A stretch of DNA of 64,000 nucleotides from an uncultured Chthonomonadaceae bacterium (lineage in GTDB: Bacteria; Armatimonadota; Chthonomonadetes; Chthonomonadales; Chthonomonadaceae), in NCBI GenBank assembly GCA_963817895.1, contig CAWFQB010000005.1:448001-512000 (forward strand). The letters run 5' to 3'. The notes under the pieces were generated by a model. It searched no databases. It was given only the letters and a program-made list of their open reading frames with translations, and was not told the origin of the DNA. Below are positions 8,782 to 63,022 of the stretch, in pieces. The position numbers were made by a program, and so were the translations under genes. Within the stretch, counting starts at the first letter, position 1, and every line of letters starts with the position of its first letter.

Positions 8782-8950
8782 AATAGACAGGATTAACAGG
8801 ATTTTCAGGATTAAACAGGATTAAAATCACGAAAAGAGGTTATTCACATTGCGTAACCACGTTTGTAAATCGTGTTGACAGAACAGCCTCTTCATCTTGC
8901 ATCCGAACTAATCCTGTTTAATCCTGAAAATCCTGTTAATCCTGTCTATT
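8782..8950. repeat. MITE-like element with perfect 42-bp inverted repeats built of CAGGATT(A/T)(A/T) ~9-mers
   Basis: 8782-8823 is the exact reverse complement of 8909-8950; 85-bp spacer. Confidence 0.9.
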
Positions 8951-10260: not shown

Positions 10261-10608
10261 ATGAAGACACTCTTTACACTGCTGACGGTGTGCGCGTTGG
10301 CCGGATCGTATCTGCTGCCGGTTCGCGCCGATGGCAAAGACGACCTGAAACACGCGACCGCGCACCTGAACCGCTCCCTGAACAAGGCGTCGAAAAGCGC
10401 CAACCGAGACTTGAACAAAGCCTCCAAAAGCGCGAACCGCGACACCAACCGCGCTTCCAAGAGCGCGAACCGCAACGTGAATAAAGCGTCCAAAAGCGCG
10501 AACCGGGATACCAATCGCGCTTCCAAACATGCCAACCGGACGGCAAATCAGGTATCCAAGGACGTGAACCACACGGCGCAGGGCAAGCCGGACGCCGACA
10601 AAAAGTAA
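10261..10608 (+). CDS. secreted hydrophilic protein with 11-residue tandem repeats (LEA-like)
   Basis: Signal peptide followed by six NRxxN(K/R)ASKSA-type units. Confidence 0.8.
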   Translation: MKTLFTLLTVCALAGSYLLPVRADGKDDLKHATAHLNRSLNKASKSANRDLNKASKSANRDTNRASKSANRNVNKASKSANRDTNRASKHANRTANQVSKDVNHTAQGKPDADKK

Positions 10609-28347: not shown

Positions 28348-28363
28348 GTCAATCTCCTGAAAA

Positions 28364-28429
28364 TGATGAATGATGAATGATGAGTGATGAACAGAATTCT
28401 ATTCATCACTCATCATTCATCATTCATCA
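28364..28429. repeat. perfect 28-bp inverted heptamer array (TGATGAA)
   Basis: 28364-28391 is the exact reverse complement of 28402-28429; the loop contains the palindrome AGAATTCT. Confidence 0.9.
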
Positions 28430-28464
28430 ATGTTGTTTCCTCTCCACTCTCCACTGAAATGAAC

Positions 28465-46923: not shown

Positions 46924-46988
46924 TCCTCCGTGTCCTCCGTGGTTGTTCTCTCCCCTTTTCTCCTCCCCGTGTCCCCCGTGTTCCCCCT
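46924..46988. repeat. nonamer tandem array (C(T/C)CCGTGTC)
   Basis: cctccgtgtcctccgtggtt ... ctccccgtgtcccccgtgttccc. Confidence 0.7.
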
Positions 46989-51900: not shown

Positions 51901-53199
51901 ATGGCGCACGGATGGGTAGAGATGATGCTGATGATTTTGCGCGTCCTGCTCGGACTGTGCCTGTTCGCGTACAGCGCGTATGCGGGCGCGTGCGTGTGGG
52001 CGGCGCGGCAGTGGCATCGCGTTCGACAAGTGATTGACCCGGACTGGACGCCGCCCGTCACCATTCTCAAGCCCGTGCGCGGCAACGACGCTTACGCTTA
52101 CGACAACTTCGCCAGTTTTTGCCGTCTGGACTATCCCACCAATCGCGTTCAAATCGTATTCGGCGTGCTGGATGCGAATGACCCCGCCATTCGCGTGGTG
52201 CGCCAACTTCAATGCGACTTTCCAGACCGCGACATCACCATTATCGTTCCCCCGCCTGCCCCGCTTCGCGGCCACAACCTGAAAGTGTGCAACCTCGTCG
52301 CCATGCTCCCCGCCGCCAAGCATAGCCTTTTAGTCCTGTGCGACAGCGACATCCGCGTCGGGCCGGACTATTTGCGTCACGTCGTCGCGCCGTTTCGGGA
52401 AGAGGAAAGAAAAGGAGAAAAGGAGAAAAGGAGAAGAGGAGAAGAGGGGAAGATACGAGATACGAGATACGAGATACGAGAAGGAGAGGATTCATCCCTC
52501 ATCCTTCATCCTTCATCCTTTGCCGTCGGCCTTGTCACCTGTCCATATCGGGGGTTTTTGCCGCAGAATTTGCCATCGTATCTGGAAGCGTTGGGATTTG
52601 GGGCGGATTTTATACCGAGCGCGTTGGTCAGTCGGGCGTTGAGCGGAATTGATTTTGCATTTGGGGCAACGATTGCCATTCCGCGCGTTATTCTGGATGA
52701 AATCGGCGGTTTTGAGGCCATTCTGGATGACCTTGCCGATGATTTTTTGTTGGGCAACCGCGTGAAACATGCCGGGTATCAGGTTGTCTTATCCAATTAT
52801 GTAGTGGAGAATGTATTAGGAGCCGAGCCATTCGATACGATGTGGGCGCGGCGGCTGCGTTGGGCGCGAACCGTGCGCGCCTGCCGTCCCATTGGGTATC
52901 TGGGCGCGTTCATCACACAGGGCAGCACGCTCGCGCTGCTGTTCGGCATGGCGATGGGCTTCAACGCGCCCGGAATTTCTATCATGTTTGGCGTTCTCGC
53001 GGTACGCATTGCTGCCGCGACATGGATTGCCAACGTATATACCCATGATGTCAGTGTGCGGCGCGGCTGGCTGTTGCTGCCCCTGAGTGATCTGCTGCAA
53101 AGCGCCCTGTACGTCGTCAGCTTTTTTGGCAGCAACATCGTATGGCGCGGACAGAAGTTTCGATTGCTGACGGGCGGCAAAATTATTCGTATTCCCTGA
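51901..53199 (+). CDS. hpnI: hopanoid-associated glycosyltransferase (HpnI-like) with a 41-aa repeat-derived insertion
   Basis: PPVTILKPVRG, NLKVCNL, DSDIRV.PDYL, VGLVTCPY, LADDFLLG, RRLRWART. Confidence 0.8.
   Translation: MAHGWVEMMLMILRVLLGLCLFAYSAYAGACVWAARQWHRVRQVIDPDWTPPVTILKPVRGNDAYAYDNFASFCRLDYPTNRVQIVFGVLDANDPAIRVVRQLQCDFPDRDITIIVPPPAPLRGHNLKVCNLVAMLPAAKHSLLVLCDSDIRVGPDYLRHVVAPFREEERKGEKEKRRRGEEGKIRDTRYEIREGEDSSLILHPSSFAVGLVTCPYRGFLPQNLPSYLEALGFGADFIPSALVSRALSGIDFAFGATIAIPRVILDEIGGFEAILDDLADDFLLGNRVKHAGYQVVLSNYVVENVLGAEPFDTMWARRLRWARTVRACRPIGYLGAFITQGSTLALLFGMAMGFNAPGISIMFGVLAVRIAAATWIANVYTHDVSVRRGWLLLPLSDLLQSALYVVSFFGSNIVWRGQKFRLLTGGKIIRIP
52399..52521 (+). repeat. composite 8-mer/7-mer repeat element, in frame inside hpnI
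   Basis: (GGAGAAAA/GGAGAAGA)n-(GATACGA)4-GAAGGAGAGGA-(TTCATCC)4-TTT; 123 bp. Confidence 0.9.
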
Positions 53200-53327
53200 A
53201 ACTACCTTTTGAAGCTATTGGGTACGCAATGGGATTGCCGCCGCCGCCCATTCGTGCTATAATCAGATACGAACACTACATTAGAATACGAACACAAATT
53301 CCGGCCCGGAAAACTCAGGAAACTATT

Positions 53328-54272
53328 GTGACAACTTCGACAACCCTTGCTTCTCCACATATACTAAATGCGCTGCATACATCAGGTCGCGCCGACGCGG
53401 ACGAAACCCTCCTGTCCGCCGATCTTGCCGCCAAATACGCCGACTTGCAGGCTATTTTGCGCGATATGGGCAGGTGCGTTATCGGCTATTCGGGCGGCGT
53501 GGACAGTACCCTTGTGCTGAAAGTGGCCCATGACGTTCTCGGCAACCGCGCTGTAGCCGTGACCGGCGACTCGGAAGCGTTTCCGCAAGGCGAAGTGGAT
53601 GCCGCGCTCACAGTGGCTGAAGCGATGGGCGTGGTCGTGACGCGCGTTCGCACTCATGAACTCGCCAACCCGAACTTCGCCGTCAACACGCCCAACCGCT
53701 GCTACCATTGCAAAAACGAACTGTTCAGCGAACTGCAAACGGTTGCGCGGGAACGCGACATTCCGTGGATCGTGGACGGCTCCCATGCCGACGACGGCAA
53801 ACCGGGCGATCACCGTCCGGGCATCCGGGCGGCGGAAGAGCGCGGCGTTCGCAGTCCCCTGCGCGAAGCGGGCATGACCAAAGCCGACGTGCGCGCCCTT
53901 GCCCTGCATTTAGGCGTACCCAACTGGGACAAGCCCTCGTTTGCCTGCCTGTCGTCGCGCTTTCCGTATGGCACGGAGATCACGGCTCCCCTGCTGGCGC
54001 AACTGGACGGCTGTGAAAAGTTTCTGCGCGAACTCGGCTTCCGGCAGTTCCGCGTTCGCCACCATGATACGGTCGCCCGTATCGAAGTGGAACCGCAGGA
54101 CATTGTTCGCCTTGTAGAACTGCGCGAAACCGTCAACGCCCGCTTCAAGGAACTCGGCTATACCTATGTCACGCTTGATATGGAGGGCTACCGTTCCGGC
54201 AAAATGAACGACACGCTGCCCAAAAAACCCGATCTGGTTCCGCTCTCTTCCATACATATGATTAAGAAATAG
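53328..54272 (+). CDS. larE: ATP-dependent sacrificial sulfur transferase LarE
   Basis: YSGGVDST, RCYHCK, DHRPG, WDKPSFACLSSRFPYG, FRVRHH, GYRSGKMN. Confidence 0.9.
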   Translation: MTTSTTLASPHILNALHTSGRADADETLLSADLAAKYADLQAILRDMGRCVIGYSGGVDSTLVLKVAHDVLGNRAVAVTGDSEAFPQGEVDAALTVAEAMGVVVTRVRTHELANPNFAVNTPNRCYHCKNELFSELQTVARERDIPWIVDGSHADDGKPGDHRPGIRAAEERGVRSPLREAGMTKADVRALALHLGVPNWDKPSFACLSSRFPYGTEITAPLLAQLDGCEKFLRELGFRQFRVRHHDTVARIEVEPQDIVRLVELRETVNARFKELGYTYVTLDMEGYRSGKMNDTLPKKPDLVPLSSIHMIKK

Positions 54273-54421
54273 ACAATTTTGCTTACTCTTAATTGCCGCG
54301 CGTCGTAAAAATGCCGTCACAATGGCACTGCATCCGGGTTATAGTGAAGCAGCAACGCGCATCCGCGCATACACTGTACGCTTCATTGGACTTTGGACGC
54401 ATTTGTCAAAAGGGGACGACC

Positions 54422-55243
54422 ATGAAAGCTATTAACCTGACGGGCAAAACATTCGCAATCGCCGGTTTGTGTCTGCTGACGACAACCGGTATGACGCAGC
54501 AGCAGAATCCTGCCGATGGAACCGCTTCGGCGGCAGACCCGGCGGCAAGCGCGGCCCAGGCAACCAACCGGCAGATGGCCCGCTCGATTTGGGAACGCGC
54601 CCACATCGGGCCGAAAGGCGAAAAGTCCGCGCAGGTGGAATTCACAATAGATATTGCCTCCAGTGACAGCGGCGCAGCCTCTTTTACGCTGAAAATGACG
54701 CGGGTAGGCAAGCAGTACCGCATGGAACTAATTCCCATCGGGCAAGGCATCGGCGAATTGGGACGCGACGCTCGAAAAATGCGGATGCTAGTCGTTTCCG
54801 ATGGCAAAGCCGAATACTCTCTGGCGGGCCAAGAGTACACCAAAAGAGCCGCGAGCAGCCGATCTTCGCTCCTGTTTCTTGCCGATTCCACAACAGAACC
54901 TTGTGACCTGCTGCCGCCCGTCACGCTCAACGGCCAGCCTGCTTATGTGGTGCGTTCACGGGTCGGCGACAAAGATAACAGCATTGTTATGCTTAGTTAT
55001 ATCAATCAGAATACGTACCAGATTATGAAATTCGAGGCCGGAAACGATGTCGCGAACAGTGGATTTAACATTGTCGCCGCGATAAAAAGCGAAGTCTTCA
55101 ACAGGGATGTGCCGGAAAGCCTGTTCAAATTCACGCCGCCGCATGGCGCGAAACAGATACCGGCCACAGCGGACGCTTCCGCAAACCCGTTGCAGGTCGC
55201 TATGCTCGGCATGGCGGGAAGCGGCGCAAGCCACACTAAATAA
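54422..55243 (+). CDS. secreted LolA-like fold protein
   Basis: Signal peptide; VVSDGK, YINQNTYQI, FKFTPPHGAK. Confidence 0.65.
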   Translation: MKAINLTGKTFAIAGLCLLTTTGMTQQQNPADGTASAADPAASAAQATNRQMARSIWERAHIGPKGEKSAQVEFTIDIASSDSGAASFTLKMTRVGKQYRMELIPIGQGIGELGRDARKMRMLVVSDGKAEYSLAGQEYTKRAASSRSSLLFLADSTTEPCDLLPPVTLNGQPAYVVRSRVGDKDNSIVMLSYINQNTYQIMKFEAGNDVANSGFNIVAAIKSEVFNRDVPESLFKFTPPHGAKQIPATADASANPLQVAMLGMAGSGASHTK

Positions 55244-55273
55244 CCCAAGTTGAATAAGGAACTCAAAATACTG

Positions 55274-56026
55274 ATGCAGAAACTATTCGGAATGGTCGCA
55301 GGCGCGGCCTTTACGCTGCTGGCCGTTCAAACCGCGCAGGCGCAGGACGTGAAAGCCATTGTCGCCAAAACCAACGCGGCCTACCACAACCTGAAAACCA
55401 TCAAGCTTTCGCTGCAAACCACGATGACAATGGATAAACAGAGCAGCAACGTGACCACGGAAGGCCAGTTCATTCCCGGCAAAAAGGCCAATCTTGTCGT
55501 GACGCCCAAAACGCCCGGCAAGCCGATGATGCGTACCAAAGACGGCAAACTGGTTCCCACCCCGACCGGAAAACAGGGCGCGATGGTGGTGGACGACGGG
55601 CAGGCCAGTTACATGATGGACGTGGGGACCAACCAGTATGTCAAGCAGCCGCACAACCCCAACATCTTTCCGATTATGGGGATGAAGTACGGCCTGCCGT
55701 TCGGCGGCATGGACCCGAAGGCTTCGTATTACAAACTGCTGGCCCCGGCCACCATCAGCGGCGTCCCCTGCTTTACGCTGCAACTGACGCCGCCCTCCAA
55801 AGACGTAACTACAACCGTCTTGATCTACGTGGATAAAGCGACGTATCGCGTTAAAGAGGCCAAAATCACCCAATCCAACGGCAAGCAGACGATGATTGCC
55901 CAAACGCTGGTGAAATCCGAAACCATCAACGCGCCCATTGCCGACAGCGTCTTCACCTTCGCCCCGCCCAAAGGCGCGCAGGAAGTCAAGCCGCCGCCGC
56001 CTCAACCCGGACCGACAGGAAAGTAG
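55274..56026 (+). CDS. secreted LolA-like fold protein (paralogue)
   Basis: Signal peptide; VVDDGQ, NQYVK, YVDKATYRV, IADSVFTFAPPKGA. Confidence 0.7.
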   Translation: MQKLFGMVAGAAFTLLAVQTAQAQDVKAIVAKTNAAYHNLKTIKLSLQTTMTMDKQSSNVTTEGQFIPGKKANLVVTPKTPGKPMMRTKDGKLVPTPTGKQGAMVVDDGQASYMMDVGTNQYVKQPHNPNIFPIMGMKYGLPFGGMDPKASYYKLLAPATISGVPCFTLQLTPPSKDVTTTVLIYVDKATYRVKEAKITQSNGKQTMIAQTLVKSETINAPIADSVFTFAPPKGAQEVKPPPPQPGPTGK

Positions 56027-56031
56027 GTAGG

Positions 56032-56125
56032 AGATACGAGATACGAGATACGAGCATAAGAGTTGACACATCATACGGTTTATGAAGTCTGTCCCCTTCT
56101 TGTATCTCGTATCTCGTATCTTCCT
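56032..56125. repeat. inverted GATACGA heptamer array; the right arm matches part of the composite element
   Basis: (AGATACG)3 ... TCCCCTTCTTGTATCTCGTATCTCGTATCTTC. Confidence 0.85.
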
Positions 56126-56135
56126 CACTAAAACT

Positions 56136-56942
56136 ATGGATGCCGAACGACTCCGACAATTGCTGGAACATGTGCGGGGGGGCGAAACCTCGATTGAAGA
56201 GGCGATGGCTCTCCTGCGTTCCCTGCCGTATGAAGATTTGGGTTTTGCCAAACTGGATCACCACCGCGCCCTGCGCAACGGTTTTCCCGAAGTGGTGTAC
56301 TGTCCGGGCAAAACAACCGAACATATCCTTGCCATTCTGGATCGCCTCATACTCCGCGCTCCCAAAGTGCTGGCGTCCCGCGCCTCGCCCGAAGTCGCGC
56401 AGGCCGTGCTGAACCAGTTTCCCGACAACGCTGTTTATCACGAATTGGCGCGGATGTTAGTAGTAAAAGAAAAGGATGAAGGCGGAAGGATGAAGGATGA
56501 AGCCGAATCCAGTTCATCCCTGCCTTCTCCCAATACCCTCGGAACCATTCTCGTCGTGTCTGCGGGAACGGCGGATTTGCCGGTTGCGGAAGAAGCGGTG
56601 ATAACGGCCTCGGAGATGGGGAGTACGGTCGAACGGCTGTACGATGTGGGCGTAGCGGGTATACACCGCCTGCTGAATAATCAAGAACGGTTGTATGCGG
56701 CCAATGTGCTGGTTGTGGTGGCGGGGATGGAGGGCGCGTTGGCTTCCGTAGTGGGCGGGCTGGTATCGCGTCCCGTAATCGCCGTCCCGACCAGCATCGG
56801 CTATGGCGCGAGTTTTCAGGGATTATCCGCCCTGCTGACGATGCTGAATTCGTGCGCGACGGGTGTAGGGGTGGTCAACATAGACAACGGCTTCGGCGCG
56901 GGCTATCTGGCGCACCTTATCAATCAAAGCGTTGAGCGTTAA
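56136..56942 (+). CDS. larB: nickel pincer cofactor biosynthesis protein LarB, with a repeat-derived insertion
   Basis: DHHRALRNGFPEVVYCPGK, SAGTADLPVAEEA, DVGVAGIHRL, AGMEGAL, VNIDNGFGA. Confidence 0.9.
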   Translation: MDAERLRQLLEHVRGGETSIEEAMALLRSLPYEDLGFAKLDHHRALRNGFPEVVYCPGKTTEHILAILDRLILRAPKVLASRASPEVAQAVLNQFPDNAVYHELARMLVVKEKDEGGRMKDEAESSSSLPSPNTLGTILVVSAGTADLPVAEEAVITASEMGSTVERLYDVGVAGIHRLLNNQERLYAANVLVVVAGMEGALASVVGGLVSRPVIAVPTSIGYGASFQGLSALLTMLNSCATGVGVVNIDNGFGAGYLAHLINQSVER

Positions 56943-57001
56943 TACAGGCGGATACAAAAACGCAGGCAAGCACGATCCTAAGTGATGATCGCAACATACC
57001 G

Positions 57002-57068
57002 GTAGGGACACAACATGTTGTGTCCCATCTTGTTGTGCCAATGCGGACACAACATGTTGTGTCCCTAC
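57002..57068. repeat. GTAG-type REP doublet (REPIN-like)
   Basis: GTAG-GGACACAACATGTTGTGTCC, a 19-nt spacer, then GGACACAACATGTTGTGTCC-CTAC. Confidence 0.85.
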
Positions 57069-57086
57069 GACCTTTGACGGTAACGC

Positions 57087-57812
57087 TTACTTATGTGAAA
57101 TCAATTTCACGTCCCCGCCACTCGGAACTTCGCGGACAACGCCGATGTTGGGCGCATAATATTTGTACTCCGGGGCTTCGCCGCTGACGGTTTCCTTAAC
57201 CTTGACGCAATGTTTGTACGCGCCGGAGGGAATCGTGACGGTTTCCTCGACGGATACGACCTCATCGTCCTCGACCGCGATACCGGGCACATCTTCGGAA
57301 CGGAACTTGTCGCCCACTTTGGGATGCGCGGGTATCAGCAGTCCCGGCTTTGCGCTGTGTTCTCCGACCAGCCACGCGCCCTCGTGTCCGATGATTTTGC
57401 CATCGCGGTACATATCCACTTTTTCGCCAAGATAGTAGACGGCCCCGGCATCGGACTGCGCGAAGTAGTCCAGCGTAATTTCCTTCAGTTTGCCGCCCAC
57501 GAACTCGCGGTCTTCCATGATACGGGCTTCCACCTTTTGCCCGTCAATGGTAAACGCGCGCGAACCCGGCTTCATGCCGCGTTCCACGCGCAGGGTCTTG
57601 CCGTCCTCTTTGCCCGTCAGTATGTCCTGATGCAGGCTGTTCAACGGCAGGTAGGCGTTGGTAATCGCGGTGGGGTTGGCAAAGCGCAATTCCGCTGTTT
57701 TGGCAGGGGTAGACGGTTCGATCTGCGCGCGCAGGAGTTGCATAGAGGAACCGGACAGCGTTGCCAGCGTAGCACAGTAGAGCAAGATGCGCGAACGGGA
57801 AAGCGTGTTCAT
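57087..57812 (-). CDS. conserved-looking secreted hypothetical protein
   Basis: Signal peptide; ITNAYLPL, DYFAQ..GAVYYLGE.VD, HEGAW, YKYYAPNIGVV. Confidence 0.75.
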   Translation of the reverse strand: MNTLSRSRILLYCATLATLSGSSMQLLRAQIEPSTPAKTAELRFANPTAITNAYLPLNSLHQDILTGKEDGKTLRVERGMKPGSRAFTIDGQKVEARIMEDREFVGGKLKEITLDYFAQSDAGAVYYLGEKVDMYRDGKIIGHEGAWLVGEHSAKPGLLIPAHPKVGDKFRSEDVPGIAVEDDEVVSVEETVTIPSGAYKHCVKVKETVSGEAPEYKYYAPNIGVVREVPSGGDVKLISHK

Positions 57813-57882
57813 ACAAGCGTGTTCCTTTCATCTGAAGGCGCATGTCTGCCAGAGCAGGCACGATTGCAGTGTCTCATCCACC

Positions 57883-57928
57883 ATGATATACGGAAGAGTC
57901 TCACAGTGGGCTTAGAATTTTCTTAGAA
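57883..57928 (-). promoter_or_regulatory. tandem TTCTAAG boxes plus -10 element
   Basis: Minus strand TTCTAAG-aaaa-TTCTAAG-N22-TATCAT. Confidence 0.55.
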
Positions 57929-58005
57929 TATACGTTATAGATTTGTGCTACTCTGATAGCGCGACAAGAGCGTTGAACACCCTTTAAAGCCGGAGAACGA
58001 TCAGA

Positions 58006-58716
58006 ATGCTTAGAAAAGACCTTCTTTATGCAATGCTGGCAGGCGCGACCCTGTCGGGGATTGGCTGCCTGCTGCTGGCCCCGCGCCATACAACGCAGAC
58101 TGTTCCCGCGCGGGAAACTGCGTCCGTATATAAAGAGAGGCAATCCGCGCCGCCCGTTTCGGCTGTGGTCAATGAGGCAATTCGGGATGCCGCGCCTGTG
58201 ACCCGCGAGGCCGATGTTCATGCTGTAGCTGTCATGCGCCCCACGAAGCCTGCGAAGGCGTTCAAAAAGCCAATATTACTGCCGGAAACGCCGCCGGCAC
58301 GTAAAGCCGTCGCTTCCAAATCGTCCGTCGCGGTACAGGAAGCCCCGCCTGCCCCCGCCCTGCCGATTATGCAGAATTCGGCTCCGTCTGTTGCCGCGCA
58401 GGTATTTACGGCGCAGGAAGCGCGCATCGCGTTGGGCAAAGTGGGAACCGATCCTGAAGCGGAGGCCGTCTGGATTAGCGCCATCAACGACCCCAACATG
58501 CCCGCCAAACAGCGCAAAGACCTGATCGAAGACCTCAACGAAGAGGGCTTTGCCAACCCCAAACAACTGACAGGCGCGGACCTGCCCCGCATTGAGAATC
58601 GATTGGCCCTGATTGAAGAACTCGCGCCCGAAGCCATTGACCAGACCAACGCCGATGCGTTTCAGGAAGCCTACAAAGACCTCAAAAATATGCAAAGCCG
58701 CCTGAGCAAACCGTAG
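58006..58716 (+). CDS. membrane-anchored hypothetical protein
   Basis: N-terminal TM, Ala/Pro linker, helical C-domain (RKDLIEDLNEEGF). Confidence 0.7.
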   Translation: MLRKDLLYAMLAGATLSGIGCLLLAPRHTTQTVPARETASVYKERQSAPPVSAVVNEAIRDAAPVTREADVHAVAVMRPTKPAKAFKKPILLPETPPARKAVASKSSVAVQEAPPAPALPIMQNSAPSVAAQVFTAQEARIALGKVGTDPEAEAVWISAINDPNMPAKQRKDLIEDLNEEGFANPKQLTGADLPRIENRLALIEELAPEAIDQTNADAFQEAYKDLKNMQSRLSKP

Positions 58717-58729
58717 GATTGCCCTCAAC

Positions 58730-58819
58730 CCCCGGCCCCTTCTCCCAATAAAGCCTGGGAGAAGGGGAGTCGATTGATCTTCCTCTGTTAAAGCGAACGG
58801 AGTTCATAAGGTTAATTCA
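58730..58819. repeat. ~90-bp dispersed palindromic repeat, copy 2
   Basis: Matches 4354-4442 in both conserved blocks. Confidence 0.85.
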
Positions 58820-58829
58820 CAATCAGCAA

Positions 58830-60101
58830 TTACTCGAAGCGCAGGGCTTCAATGGGGTGCAGGCGGGAGGCTTTGTTCGCCGGGTAGATGCCGAAGAACA
58901 GGCCGACACCGGCAGACACCATCAGCGCGACAAATACCGCCGTCAGGTTGACAACCGCGCTCCACCCGGAGAAATACGCCAATATCTGCGCAATCCCAAC
59001 CCCCATAACGATTCCGAGCAGGCCGCCGAGCAGCGAGATAATCGCGGACTCGATGAGGAACTGCATCATAATATCGCGGGGCGTGGCTCCGATAGCCTTG
59101 CGGATGCCGATTTCGCGGGTTCGTTCTGTTACGGATACGAGCATGATGTTCATAATGCCGATGCCGCCCACAACGAGCGAGATAACCGCGACGGCGGAAA
59201 GCAGCGTGGTCATGGTTCCCGTAATGCTCTGCTGCGACTCCATCAGTTCCGTCTGGCTGCGGATTCGGAAATCGTCGTTGTCGGGAAAGGGCGGCGTCAG
59301 TCGGTGGCGAACGCGCAGATAACTGGAAATTTGCTCCTGCGCCAGCGGCATCATGTCCTGCGTGGTGCAGCGTATTAGAATGTCGTTGAGGTAGTTCCGG
59401 TTCAGAACACGCCGCATGGCCGTTGTCACGGGAACCAGAACAACGTCGTCCTGATCCTGTCCCCATGAGGTTGAGCCTTTGGGGGCCAGCATCCCCACGA
59501 CGCGGAACTTCTGCCGATTGATGGCGATGGTTCGGCCTGTCAGGTCGGTATGCGCGTCCCCGGTCAGATGTTCGGCAATAGTCTGGCCCGCGACACAGAC
59601 TTTGAAACTGCCCTCCTGTTCGGCCTCGCTAAAGAAACGCCCGGACGCCACTTCGGTATTCTTCACATACAGGTAGTCGCTCGTGGTTCCGATGACATCT
59701 GTGTTGGCGTCCACGCTGTCCATTCGCACCTGAACGCCCGAATCAATCTGCGGCGCGACGCGGTCTACCGCCTGCGCGAAGTTTTTGGCGATGGCATTGG
59801 CATCCGCAAGCGTCAGGCGGTTGGGCGCGACGCTGTTGGCGATTGCGCCGTTGGCAATTGTGGCCGCGCGGGACGTCACCGTGCCGACGCGCAGGCGGTT
59901 GCGATTGGTGGAAACGGAAAGCAGATTGGTTCCCAGCGAGTTGACAGTTTCTGTCACCCGCTGGGTCGCGCCCTCTCCGATAGCGACAACCACGATCACC
60001 ACGCCGACGCCGATAATCATGCCGAGCATGGTGAGCGCGGTTCGCATTTTGTTGCTGGCAAGCCCGCGCAGGGCCACCCGCAACCCTTCAAGTAAGTTCA
60101 T
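58830..60101 (-). CDS. MacB/FtsX-family ABC transporter permease
   Basis: RTALTMLGMIIGV, LVVGGIGIMNIMLVSVTERTREIGIRKAIGA, PIEALRFE. Confidence 0.95.
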   Translation of the reverse strand: MNLLEGLRVALRGLASNKMRTALTMLGMIIGVGVVIVVVAIGEGATQRVTETVNSLGTNLLSVSTNRNRLRVGTVTSRAATIANGAIANSVAPNRLTLADANAIAKNFAQAVDRVAPQIDSGVQVRMDSVDANTDVIGTTSDYLYVKNTEVASGRFFSEAEQEGSFKVCVAGQTIAEHLTGDAHTDLTGRTIAINRQKFRVVGMLAPKGSTSWGQDQDDVVLVPVTTAMRRVLNRNYLNDILIRCTTQDMMPLAQEQISSYLRVRHRLTPPFPDNDDFRIRSQTELMESQQSITGTMTTLLSAVAVISLVVGGIGIMNIMLVSVTERTREIGIRKAIGATPRDIMMQFLIESAIISLLGGLLGIVMGVGIAQILAYFSGWSAVVNLTAVFVALMVSAGVGLFFGIYPANKASRLHPIEALRFE

Positions 60102-60121
60102 AAGTATCTATCGCGAGAAAA

Positions 60122-60589
60122 CTATTCCTTCTCGCCCTTCTCGCCCTTCTCGCCTTTTTCTCCGGCTTCGCCCTTTTCGCCCGCTTCCGATTTGGAGGCT
60201 TTCGCGCCCTTGCCGGATTTGTCCATTTTGCCGGTCTTCTTGCCCGTCTTTTTGGCTTCTTCGGCCTTTTTTTCCGCCGCTTCTTCTTTGGCGGTGACCG
60301 TCTCTTCCGAGTCGATCTTGCCCGTGTTGGCGTTGACCATCACTTCATGCGTTTTGCCGCCGGCCTTGACCATCACGGCGTATTCCCACTTGCCCTCTTC
60401 GTTTTCGAGCGCGGTTTTGCCCTGAACCTTGCCGCTCTTGTATTTCTTCAGCGCGACGGCTTCCGCCTGTGTGGAGGACAATTTGGTTTTGGGCGTTTGC
60501 TGCGCCCGGACGGTTGCGGTTCCGGCGCAAAGCAGGCTAACGAGGGCAAGACTGCCGAGGGCCGTCCGCAGAGTACGATTCGTGTTCAT
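60122..60589 (-). CDS. PepSY-domain secreted protein with a GEK-repeat tail
   Basis: AEAVAL....GKV...LENEEG..EYAV....HEVMVNANTGKI. Confidence 0.85.
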   Translation of the reverse strand: MNTNRTLRTALGSLALVSLLCAGTATVRAQQTPKTKLSSTQAEAVALKKYKSGKVQGKTALENEEGKWEYAVMVKAGGKTHEVMVNANTGKIDSEETVTAKEEAAEKKAEEAKKTGKKTGKMDKSGKGAKASKSEAGEKGEAGEKGEKGEKGEKE

Positions 60590-60645
60590 GTGGTTTTCCC
60601 TTTCAGGAGGAAGGATTGGAAGCGCGATCAATGATGCGCAACGCC

Positions 60646-60690
60646 ATTATACCAGCGGACGGGGCAAACGAAACTTAGAATGTATTAAGA
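60646..60690 (-). promoter_or_regulatory. TTCTAAG box plus extended -10 element
   Basis: Minus strand tcttaat-aca-TTCTAAG-N22-TATAAT (TGgTATAAT). Confidence 0.55.
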
Positions 60691-61254
60691 GGCTTGCTGG
60701 AGGAAATTGCGGAGGAGGTCTTTGCCGCTGGCAGTCAGCGCGGATTCGGGGTGGAATTGAACGCCCTCTACCGCGTATTCCCGATGCCGGACGCCCATCA
60801 CTTCGCCCTCGGCGGTTTCCGCCGTGATTTCCAGACAGGCAGGCATGGTGTCGCGCTTGATAACGAGGGAATGGTAGCGCGTCGCCTCGAACGGCTGCGG
60901 CAGGCCACGAAACACGCCCTTGCCCTCGTGGTGAATCAGCGACGTTTTGCCGTGCATGATGCGGTCATTGCGCACCACGTCGCCGCCGAACGCCGCCCCG
61001 ATGCTCTGATGCCCCAAACACACGCCAAAAATGGGTATCTCGCCCGCGAATCGCTGTATCAGCGGCACGCTAACCCCGGCCTCATTGGGAGTGCAGGGGC
61101 CGGGCGAAATCAGAATACCCTCCGGGTTGAGGTCAGCAATCTCGTCCAGCGTAATGCGGTCGTTGCGCCGCACGTCCACGCTTGCGCCAAGTTCGCCCAG
61201 ATACTGCACCAGATTATAGGTAAAACTGTCGTAATTATCAATAACCAGAATCAT
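60685..61254 (-). CDS. pabA: anthranilate/aminodeoxychorismate synthase glutamine amidotransferase (TrpG/PabA)
   Basis: [37 protein letters not shown]. Confidence 0.9.
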
Positions 61255-61282
61255 CATTTTCCTCATCGCTATAAAATAGACT

Positions 61283-62959
61283 TCAGCGCAGATGCCGCGC
61301 CAGGAAGATGGCGTACAGGCGGCAGCGGAAGCGGGCTTCTTCGAGAGATGCGCCTGTCAGGACGCCCGCCGCGCGCAATCGGTAAAAGGTTTCCGGCGTG
61401 GCGCAGCGTTGCCCGAGGGACAGGGCGCGTACCGCTTCTTTCAATTCCGGGGCGCGGGACAGGGCGGCAAGCATTCGGCGCAGATGTTCGCCAAACGGCC
61501 CGTTCTCCTGATCGGCCTCGGCTTCCAGCGCATCCAGAGGGAGTTGGCGCGTTACCATTGTATCATAGCCGCGCCGCGCCAGGTAGGGATGCCCGCCGAT
61601 CAGGTCGTAAAAACGCGACACTTCCCACTCTGAAAGCGGGCTGCCGTAGCGCCGGTTCAGGTCGGCAAGCTGGTCCGGCGTGAAATCGTCAAGCTGCAAG
61701 CGCGTACCGACATTGAACGGGGACTGGTTGAGGTCCTGAATAAACAAATGCGCTTCCGTCGCGTAGGCAATGGCAAGCGTAAGCCGGGACCAGGGGCCGT
61801 CCGGGTCCAGGGCGCGGCGATTGTGCCAGGAGCGGAACAAGCCGAACACTTCATTGCCGCACGGCAGGGTAAACAGCCTGTCCACCTCATCCAGTCCCCA
61901 CACGAGCGGCGTGTCCGAAGCGGCTAAGGCGACGTTGCACAAAAAGCGCTCCAGATTGCGATTGGCGCTGCGATTGGGATTCCAATGCGCTTCCGGGTCG
62001 GTATCCAATGCGAGCTGGTCCGCCATCTCCTGCGCCAGTTCGCGGTACAGCGCATCGGAGGAACCGAGCGTCGTCTGGGAAAGGCTGTCGAAGTCGGTCA
62101 TCACGACGCGGCTGCCGTTTTGTCGCGCCGTCTGCAAACCGCGCGCCAGCAGGCTGGTTTTGCCCACCTGCCGCGCCCCCTTGACAAGCACGATGCTGTC
62201 CTGTCGCGTAATCGCCTGCGCAAAATTGGCATCGGTGTCATGCAGAATATAAAACGGCGAATTCAGCGGCACGGCTCCGCCATCGGCGTCGAGGGGAAAG
62301 GATGAAGGATGAAGGATGAAGGATGAAGCCTCCCCTTCTTGTATCTTGTATCTTGTATCTTGTATCTTCTCCTCTTCTCCTTGTCTCCCTATCTCCTTGT
62401 CTCCCTCCGGCGCGGGCAGGGACGCCAGCAATGCGGTTATACGTGCGTGGGAACGCTGACAGCGGGCGCGGGCTTCCACTGCCCATGTTTCGCGCCAGCC
62501 GTCAAGGAGAGGCGCGGAACAGAGTTGTAAGGCTTCCCGCCACCCTGCCGCGTTGATTTCCGACTGTGCCAGTTGTTCAAACCGAAGCAAATCCACGTTC
62601 GCGTCATCGAGATTGAAGCGTATCACGCCCCGGCCCGCGCTTTCCACCCGCCACTCGTGATCGCCCAGCGCGCGGCGCAGGGCGCGAACGCCCTGCCGCG
62701 TGGAGGGAAAGTCGCCGCCCGCATATTCGTCGTTCTGTTGCGCTTCGGACGGCCAGAACAGCAGGGCGAGCTGCCGGTATGTGACGAGTTGCCCGTGCCG
62801 AAGGGCGAGATACGCCAGCAGGCGCTCCCCTTCGCGCAGATGCAATCCGGTTAATGGCTTATCGTCAATGGATGCTTCCAGCGCGCCGAAAAGACGCAGC
62901 GTGAGTTCGGAGGAGGCCAACTTTTCTTTTCCCTGCCTTTGCTGCTGTATCTGCCCCAT
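61283..62959 (-). CDS. SARP-like wHTH/short BTAD + AAA_35-type ATPase regulator
   Basis: [72 protein letters not shown]. Alternative start at 63016. Confidence 0.85.
62297..62407 (-). repeat. composite 8-mer/7-mer repeat element, in frame in the regulator's linker
   Basis: Minus strand (GGAGACAA/GGAGATAG/GGAGAAGA)n-(GATACAA)4-GAAGGGGAGGC-(TTCATCC)4-TTT; 111 bp. Confidence 0.9.
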
Positions 62960-63022
62960 GCCTGTTTGCCGCGCTGCATCAAAGCCCTGTCCGTCACACA
63001 GTTTTTGCCTGCACATATTGAT

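Follow-up and report, generated by a model that had tools for sequence, protein, structure and literature searches.

How do two unrelated genes of one bacterium come to encode the same peptide? The question is raised by a 64,000-nt stretch of DNA from an uncultured Chthonomonadaceae bacterium (the window, G000:C5:448001-512000; the source genome, G000, measures 7.48 Mb and is 81% complete), in which hpnI and the gene of an AAA_35-domain regulator each carry a composite tandem-repeat insert (Table 1). Both inserts are present as the initial annotation described them, and both are in frame. Chance is excluded as their origin because GATACRA x3, expected 1e-5 times per genome, has 211 matches in G000, and an assembly artefact is unlikely, since arms are found at the same loop in separate records. 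We find that the inserts belong to a large family of array-built elements, that in relatives, near-identical strains among them, the same sites hold elements of other content, and that identical tracts of module plus junction stand at unrelated loci, with a G000-specific module innermost.

Exact arrays in G000 number 557 for heptamer and 173 for octamer units, against 20 for 5-base, 31 for 6-base and 7 for 9-base units; the commonest units differ from the published heptamer units, which were not themselves searched for. Using 19 unit families that we defined from the G000 array counts, we grouped 1840 arms, with units of 7-10 bases, into 1106 clusters that show many arm combinations and no single conserved full-length sequence. 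With one exception among 537 two-sided clusters, purine-rich left arms stand before their complements. According to our own gene caller, 147 of the 1106 clusters lie within open coding frames. Among two-sided clusters, matched hairpins make up 333/442 non-coding ones versus 11/95 coding ones (p 8e-32), mixed arms being found in the other 84/95. Of the 109 chimeras classed as 'non-coding', 56 contain an open frame connected to the end of a gene. Matched hairpins lie a median of 6 nt behind stop codons, avoid divergent gaps (9/255 versus 479/3352) and also occur as nested pairs between genes. The initial picture of a modular, dispersed repeat that gives unrelated proteins the same peptide is supported. 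As a separate observation, AATGC stands 12 nt or less from an arm in 42/225 matched-hairpin spacers (3.6 expected) across arm families, and by its sequence could possibly be a binding or cutting motif.

The same sites in relatives hold different elements. We compared G000 with a same-genus relative, G002, over 2.0 of about 8 Mb plus 33 loci. A G002 counterpart exists for 30 of the 147 in-frame sites; 28 of these 30 contain an array, with the same arm set in 4 and an arm in common in 13, and 20/22 are filled when eight sites from loci chosen for repeats are set aside. In the reverse direction, a clear counterpart in G000 exists for 10 in-frame sites of G002; 9 of these are filled in G000, the remaining one being a glucosidase-like site. 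Every GATACGA in-frame site with a counterpart (6/6) is filled by other arms in G002, as are 10/11 intergenic GATACGA sites. Among the 497 of 3933 intergenic gaps that were compared, a G002 array is present at 112/130 gaps filled in G000 versus 78/367 unfilled there. The unit differs in 98 of the 112 shared filled gaps; of all 112, 55 differ by at least 3 edits and 34 have units at most 1 edit apart, and units at shared gaps are closer than random (30% versus 7% within one edit). Spacers at shared sites are mostly unrelated, 5/33 lying above the 95th percentile of non-orthologous pairs. The unit changes also look lineage-paired: GATACGA hairpins often face TAGGCAT in G002 (4/11), and GGTAGAT-type hairpins face AGTAGTC (example gaps C3:181311, C8:4415, C3:182032 and C10:201404).

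Single loci show the turnover most directly. The HpnI protein P0002 is 95% identical to that of the window outside the loop; its outer arms are of the same types and the GATACGA module is missing, which speaks against a composite that moves as a unit. P0241 matches P0002 at 383/388 residues outside the loop (98.7%), and its loop differs from that of P0002 in the left variant, in one added right module and in the right variant; P0001 adds GATACGA x4, and the G002 HpnI (73%) holds five modules. Among homologues of the regulator, P0129, P0130 and P0134 have composites of other kinds at this linker, and P0122 has a long non-repeat stretch there. The only full-length copy of glmS contains one element, whose left arm is swapped relative to G002; in larB the G002 gene retains the same arm and has three further modules; and in the gap of the hairpin at 56033..56120, G002 holds a hairpin of another unit. 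Relative G001, sampled over 400 kb, has short or non-repeat loops at 5 of the six sites compared and one repeat-like loop, judged by eye. According to the initial annotation, the presence of the inserts in distant orthologues would refute its reading, a condition that is half borne out: orthologues do hold inserts in the HpnI loop, but different ones.

The GATACGA module has 214 arrays, comprising 120 paired and 94 unpaired copies. Coding frames contain 38 of them, and 36 of these are unpaired (35 sense, 1 antisense); the genome-wide tabulation called for at the outset gives one phase for 29 of the 35 sense copies. Where a side has several arms, GATACGA lies further inside than the others in 43/48 cases. 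As expected of a shared non-repeat junction, further copies have it: 27 arrays are joined to a TCATCC array, 24 through an 11-nt junction, and 13 of the 14 composites internal to genes are in one phase. GATACRA x3 has 4 matches in G002 and 0 in 39 other relatives, the unit itself being spread over many phyla (about 670 stretches estimated); TTCATCC x3 occurs in 10/251 genomes of the phylum, and two patterns of the composite junction gave 0 matches in JGI metagenome contigs. The public runs listed number 4, with shares of 0.05-0.07 and no RNA among them. Uniform G or A within an array holds for the window's two copies but fails in general, only 33/51 unpaired arrays of at least 4 units being uniform, and all-A and all-G arrays are nevertheless more frequent than independent variation gives. 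Of the four GATACAA x4 arrays that are all-A, two occupy one and the same linker in a pair of paralogous regulators (G000:C9:90377, P0130, and window 62339-62366), and the A form may be older than the G form because the four G002 matches are all-A too. Mirror matching of variants between hairpin arms (6 A-A pairs versus 32 mismatched) was uninformative.

Within genes, the arrays pass a filter. Element peptides have a mean hydropathy of -1.64 versus +0.49 antisense, and in 23/27 composites all antisense frames are closed. In most families one arm strand encodes stops or a hydrophobic run (FILHPSS, with hydropathy 0.67 and 47 copies, is an exception), so that genes mostly keep a tolerated left arm and a tolerated right arm of another family. 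Insert orientation follows from stops and hydrophobicity. That the two window inserts share peptide and orientation is true, though in part a matter of arithmetic: whichever frame is read, a heptamer array encodes the same seven residues, and antisense TTCATCC carries TGA. Avoidance of mRNA hairpins and a peptide filter are not separable here as causes of chimerism. Phase is a different matter. Stops were rejected as its cause (at least 2 sense frames are open in 30/35), as was hydropathy, the other sense frames being equally hydrophilic (-1.74). The right arm is in one register in 32/47 and one identical 53-nt tract is found in two phases; phase would be handed down from the right arm by way of the fixed 11-nt junction.

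Copying between loci is suggested by exact tracts of 41-70 nt, spanning junctions, that unrelated loci have in common; by a 70-nt interior common to two intergenic elements; and by spacer families that occur with different arms. Modules are lineage-favoured, GATACGA occurring at 25.4 per Mb in G000 versus 2.0 in G002 and GGGAACA at 1.1 versus 29.5. We propose that loop content is rewritten in place by templated copying from a central break, with a filter at the peptide level, a proposal that we judge evenly poised between right and wrong. A tolerated hairpin would first land in a permissive loop; a break at the element centre would then be repaired with arm modules copied from other elements of the genome. 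Short likeness between arms would prime the copying, and each half would use a donor of its own. Such fill-in would keep the arm order and yield chimeras in one step with no stop-containing intermediate, and selection would probably retain only stop-free, hydrophilic arm combinations inside genes. As the cutter, the host SbcCD would be our first guess, with arm-flanked GxxExxY or four-helix-bundle proteins second. SbcCD cuts hairpins, and two sbcD genes of G000 score over cut-off.

Several observations weigh against this proposal. No intermediate, breakpoint or enzyme activity was seen in this analysis, and P0002 and P0241 are known as proteins only. Nested intergenic matched pairs favour whole-element insertion, and the replacement of outer arms too, in hpnI and glmS, is not simply explained by growth from the centre outwards. 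P0003 HpnI (88%) has a six-residue loop yet is nested among filled homologues in a quick tree of 46 rows, so loss or re-insertion occurs; together with whole replacement between genes, it indicates that entire elements are also inserted or lost. The HpnI loop holds unrelated repeat types in other lineages (23/112 homologues by peptide motif). Unrelated intergenic spacers agree equally well with whole replacement or re-insertion, and the intergenic counts, taken by themselves, could come from independent insertions into a restricted number of tolerant gaps. With only about 36 nt of gap free, edges that coincide to 5-6 nt carry little weight. G002 lengths differ by a non-multiple of three at 4/30 in-frame sites, which may be errors or real frameshifts. 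The equal hydrophilicity of the other sense frames likewise leaves the phase outside the peptide filter.

Genes that could supply a dedicated enzyme are bracketed by the same kind of arms. In G000, both four-helix-bundle and all four GxxExxY genes lie within inverted arrays (6/6), and in relatives arrays stand on both sides in 14/14 among the cassette loci shown, of 20. In L076 and L094, 2/108 GATACGA loci elsewhere (43/103 neighbouring open reading frames (ORFs) scanned), PF05635 genes stand between GATACGA arms, and the four-helix-bundle cassettes of G002 and G023 have arm units as in their own hpnI inserts. G001 (400 kb) lacks a PF05635 match, its hpnI loop is short and its heptamer arrays number 15 per Mb versus 74.5 and 170. 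None of the G000 cassettes found in the 81% complete genome has GATACGA, TTCATCC or GGAGAAAA arms. The elements, which hold no genes, are probably related to cassettes with GxxExxY or four-helix-bundle genes. Spacers as remnants of cassette genes were rejected, since ATG stands near an arm in 74 cases versus 67 shuffled and the best cassette matches are arm sequence. Also rejected as partner enzymes were Y1 transposases of the REP-associated (RAYT) type (REP, repetitive extragenic palindrome) and reverse transcriptase (RT), arms standing beside neither: the 3 PF01797 Y1 transposase genes found in the 81% complete genome have no heptamer arms within 500 nt on each side, and the one RT, presumably retron-like by its motif, has none in the 0.5-1 kb inspected. 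As a side observation, an XisH gene, one of 13 XisH matches in G000, lies between matched GAGACACA arms at G000:C1:1582413-1583400; PMC4679880 remarks that XisH/XisI and heptamer repeats are distributed alike.

These cassettes provide the chief alternative to templated rewriting, with which it could be combined: an enzyme encoded between such arms, of the GxxExxY nuclease fold or the four-helix bundle, would recognise arms and insert new elements or halves into existing ones, the old arms then shrinking by slippage. This is possible, though in our estimate unlikely. It would account for the bracketing of all six G000 genes and the XisH locus, for the PF05635 genes between GATACGA arms, for the cassette arms of G002 and G023, for the sparse arrays and short loop of G001 and for nested pairs. 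Yet the window's own units are absent from the cassette arms of the 81% complete G000, only 2/108 GATACGA loci elsewhere showed such a gene among the neighbouring ORFs scanned, and whole-hairpin insertion would mostly bring stops or hydrophobic arms into genes such as glmS; the absence of any observed intermediate or enzyme activity, and the insertion or loss of entire elements, count against it as they do against our proposal. RNA-templated retrohoming, in which an Avd-like four-helix-bundle protein and an RT copy a transcribed element over another, invokes the same protein family, as PF05635 resembles Avd (PMC10053308, in part), and is similar in kind to in-place replacement; the placement of matched hairpins behind stops and their scarcity in divergent gaps also fit. 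We nevertheless consider it highly improbable, given the single RT with no adjoining arms, junction changes at G as well as A, and no template-variable pair among the elements seen.

The initial annotation had taken the composite for one mobile unit that enters empty sites like a Rickettsia palindromic element (RPE) or a miniature inverted-repeat transposable element (MITE). A junction common to 27 composites, the 70-nt interior of two intergenic elements, short loops in relatives and the glucosidase-like site, filled in G002 and unfilled in G000, agree with this. But the GATACGA sites filled by other arms in G002, the lack of the middle module only in P0002, the absence of a palindrome (fold z 0.30 and -1.10 for the two inserts) and of a clear target duplication largely refute it at GATACGA sites; we think it improbable overall, and it may still describe the first colonisation of a loop. 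Least credible is local change only, in which point mutation and slippage convert units site by site with no copying between loci. The 34/112 shared gaps with units within one edit and the excess of all-A and all-G arrays would suit it, yet unrelated loci have junctions and spacer families in common, a single lineage shows the same new unit at many of its loci, and the exact shared tracts already point to distant donors.

The window holds further members of the family (Table 1). The supposed partial intergenic copy at 56082-56125 is in fact the right arm of a matched hairpin, and the label of the regulator needs qualification: its AAA part stands (AAA_35 at 247-572), whereas the SARP part (Streptomyces antibiotic regulatory protein) is only partly shown, with no Pfam match to BTAD at E<=0.01 in the window protein, weak BTAD matches in 3/3 homologues scanned and the name SARP family on some homologues. 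The AlphaFold model of HpnI (predicted local distance difference test (pLDDT) 91.7, <50 only at residues 190-196) renders the insert as an extension of a helix together with a loop of low confidence. In both inserts the left and right ends come from different arm families, giving no terminal inverted repeats (TIRs), and the longest word common to the two insert edges is 5 nt, with no close unfilled allele as DNA for comparison.

Table 1. Repeat elements of the window and their host genes (window coordinates)
Feature	Position	Strand	Remark
hpnI, host gene, intact	51901..53199	+	TIGR03472 347.8 bits, cut-off 310
In-frame insert in hpnI, 123 bp	52399..52521	+	outer edges uncertain by a few codons
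hpnI insert, outer left arm, 8-mer array	52414..52445	+	
hpnI insert, inner left module, GATACGA x4	52452..52479	+	absent in 95%-identical homologue P0002
hpnI insert, 11-nt non-repeat junction	52480..52490	+	commonest form, 5/27
hpnI insert, right arm, TTCATCC-type x4	52491..52518	+	arm type also in P0002, P0241, G002
Peptide EGEDSSLILHPSSFAVGLVTCPYR			part of HpnI
AAA_35-domain regulator, host gene	61283..63016	-	
In-frame insert in regulator, 111 bp	62297..62407	-	linker before AAA_35
Regulator insert, outer left arm, 8-mer array	62365..62404	-	
Regulator insert, inner left module, GATACAA x4	62339..62366	-	
Regulator insert, right arm, TTCATCC x4	62300..62327	-	
Third in-frame element, core in larB	56488..56501	+	GGATGAA-type left arm, decayed right arm
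Intergenic matched hairpin	56033..56120	.	arms 56033-56053 and 56100-56120; fold z -8.1
9-mer hairpin, same family	8786-8946		
AATGATG/ATTCATC pair, same family	28362-28455		
9-mer right arm, same family	46925-46981		

Other repeats and mobile genes were noted alongside. A 33/66-nt tandem repeat lies at window 10369-10559. Transposase-like genes lie inside hairpin elements at G000:C3:336340-337390, C4:327134-328191, C14:676215, C2:121374 and C3:364036. One insertion sequence, which we take to be IS982-like, has 2/4 copies within AGGTTGTT arms, read as insertion into arrays and not as a link to the arms. Two Y1 transposase genes stand between REP/TIR-like palindromes of a separate repeat system (G000:C5:223662-224000 and C2:68237-68578). 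A 24-bp element, CGGGCGTCCACCCGCAGGGAAGGA in its majority form, has 30 copies in G000 (for example C1:185887, C2:477884, C3:342974 and C5:157149) and occurs in L255 and L258 of G002. One REP-like repeat has 14 unfilled (22 nt) and 4 filled (46 nt) copies, the difference being exactly the 24 nt of this element, which is also found inside CCCTCTCC repeats and heptamer arms, some in frame. It presumably resembles the small dispersed repeats of Nostoc; Elhai et al. are said to have treated such repeats in 2008.

Comparable heptamer repeats are the short tandemly repeated repetitive (STRR) sequences of cyanobacteria. Heptamer simple sequence repeats (SSRs) of Xanthomonas and Nostoc (PMC4692102) and the TAACTGA repeats of Beggiatoaceae (PMC4679880), each as far as the accessible text goes, share with our arrays about four units per array, dispersal, convergent inverted pairs and some copies in genes, and the orientation of TAACTGA in ORFs is set by stop codons. 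The window's two inserts differ from such pairs in being unpaired. The SSR and TAACTGA studies, in the same portions, each concern one unit family and do not describe module swapping, whereas here at least 19 families stand in fixed order, are chimeric in genes and probably have their sites rewritten. RPEs likewise lie in frame in unrelated genes, with a recurrent peptide in tolerant loops, but the sections of PMC10969869 covered present palindromes of about 150 bp with one conserved sequence, unlike these non-palindromic tandem mosaics that change at a fixed site. The intervening sequences (IVSs) of 23S rRNA (PMC4990558, in part) have inverted ends, heptamers before an S23p/four-helix-bundle ORF and a product of the same protein family as our arm-flanked genes; they carry that ORF and are excised by RNase III, whereas the window inserts have no ORF of their own and no strong stem and should be read through. 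REPIN-RAYT systems (PMC3116915, PMC3733652) and Ssn-NTS (PMC11893778), on the parts consulted, resemble the family in their gene-less hairpin doublets, hundreds of copies and an enzyme gene tied to the same repeats, and REPs are also intragenic (PMC3733652). They differ in that our arms are tandem arrays and not palindromic REPs, the three Y1 genes lack heptamer arms and the arm-flanked candidates are of other families. Neither insert has the TIRs of a MITE, and a single RT with no adjoining arms, together with a junction that varies at G and A and not at adenine only, distinguishes the family from diversity-generating retroelements (DGRs).

Heptamer arrays with inverted pairs, in-frame RPEs and IVS cassettes with heptamers are thus known parts, and what is new here is the chimeric, module-swapping form that is predicted to be translated. 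In line with the initial annotation, which had called the mechanism undescribed, the full-text literature, whose coverage leaves out most subscription papers and supplements, yielded no account of the arm order, of chimeric translated copies or of module swapping at fixed sites; further intragenic cases may stand in tables of PMC3733652 and PMC4679880.

The findings bear on two questions, the abundance of bacterial heptamer arrays and the role of four-helix-bundle and GxxExxY genes. The arrays described here follow a set order and come with candidate partner genes, and their behaviour is measurable: sites stay fixed, content turns over fast, and a clear filter is seen inside genes. Short peptide modules are shuffled among about 150 proteins, which maps loops that tolerate 30-70 extra residues. 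Tentatively, and against our own expectation, this could be a homing system in which arm-borne four-helix-bundle or GxxExxY proteins target existing elements and swap half-elements, so that some 150 protein loops in one bacterium, those of housekeeping enzymes included, change their coding, drawn from a small set of peptides, more quickly than strains diverge. If so, the loop variation would be neither transposition into new sites nor the work of a DGR, and homing would explain the excess of bacterial heptamer repeats.

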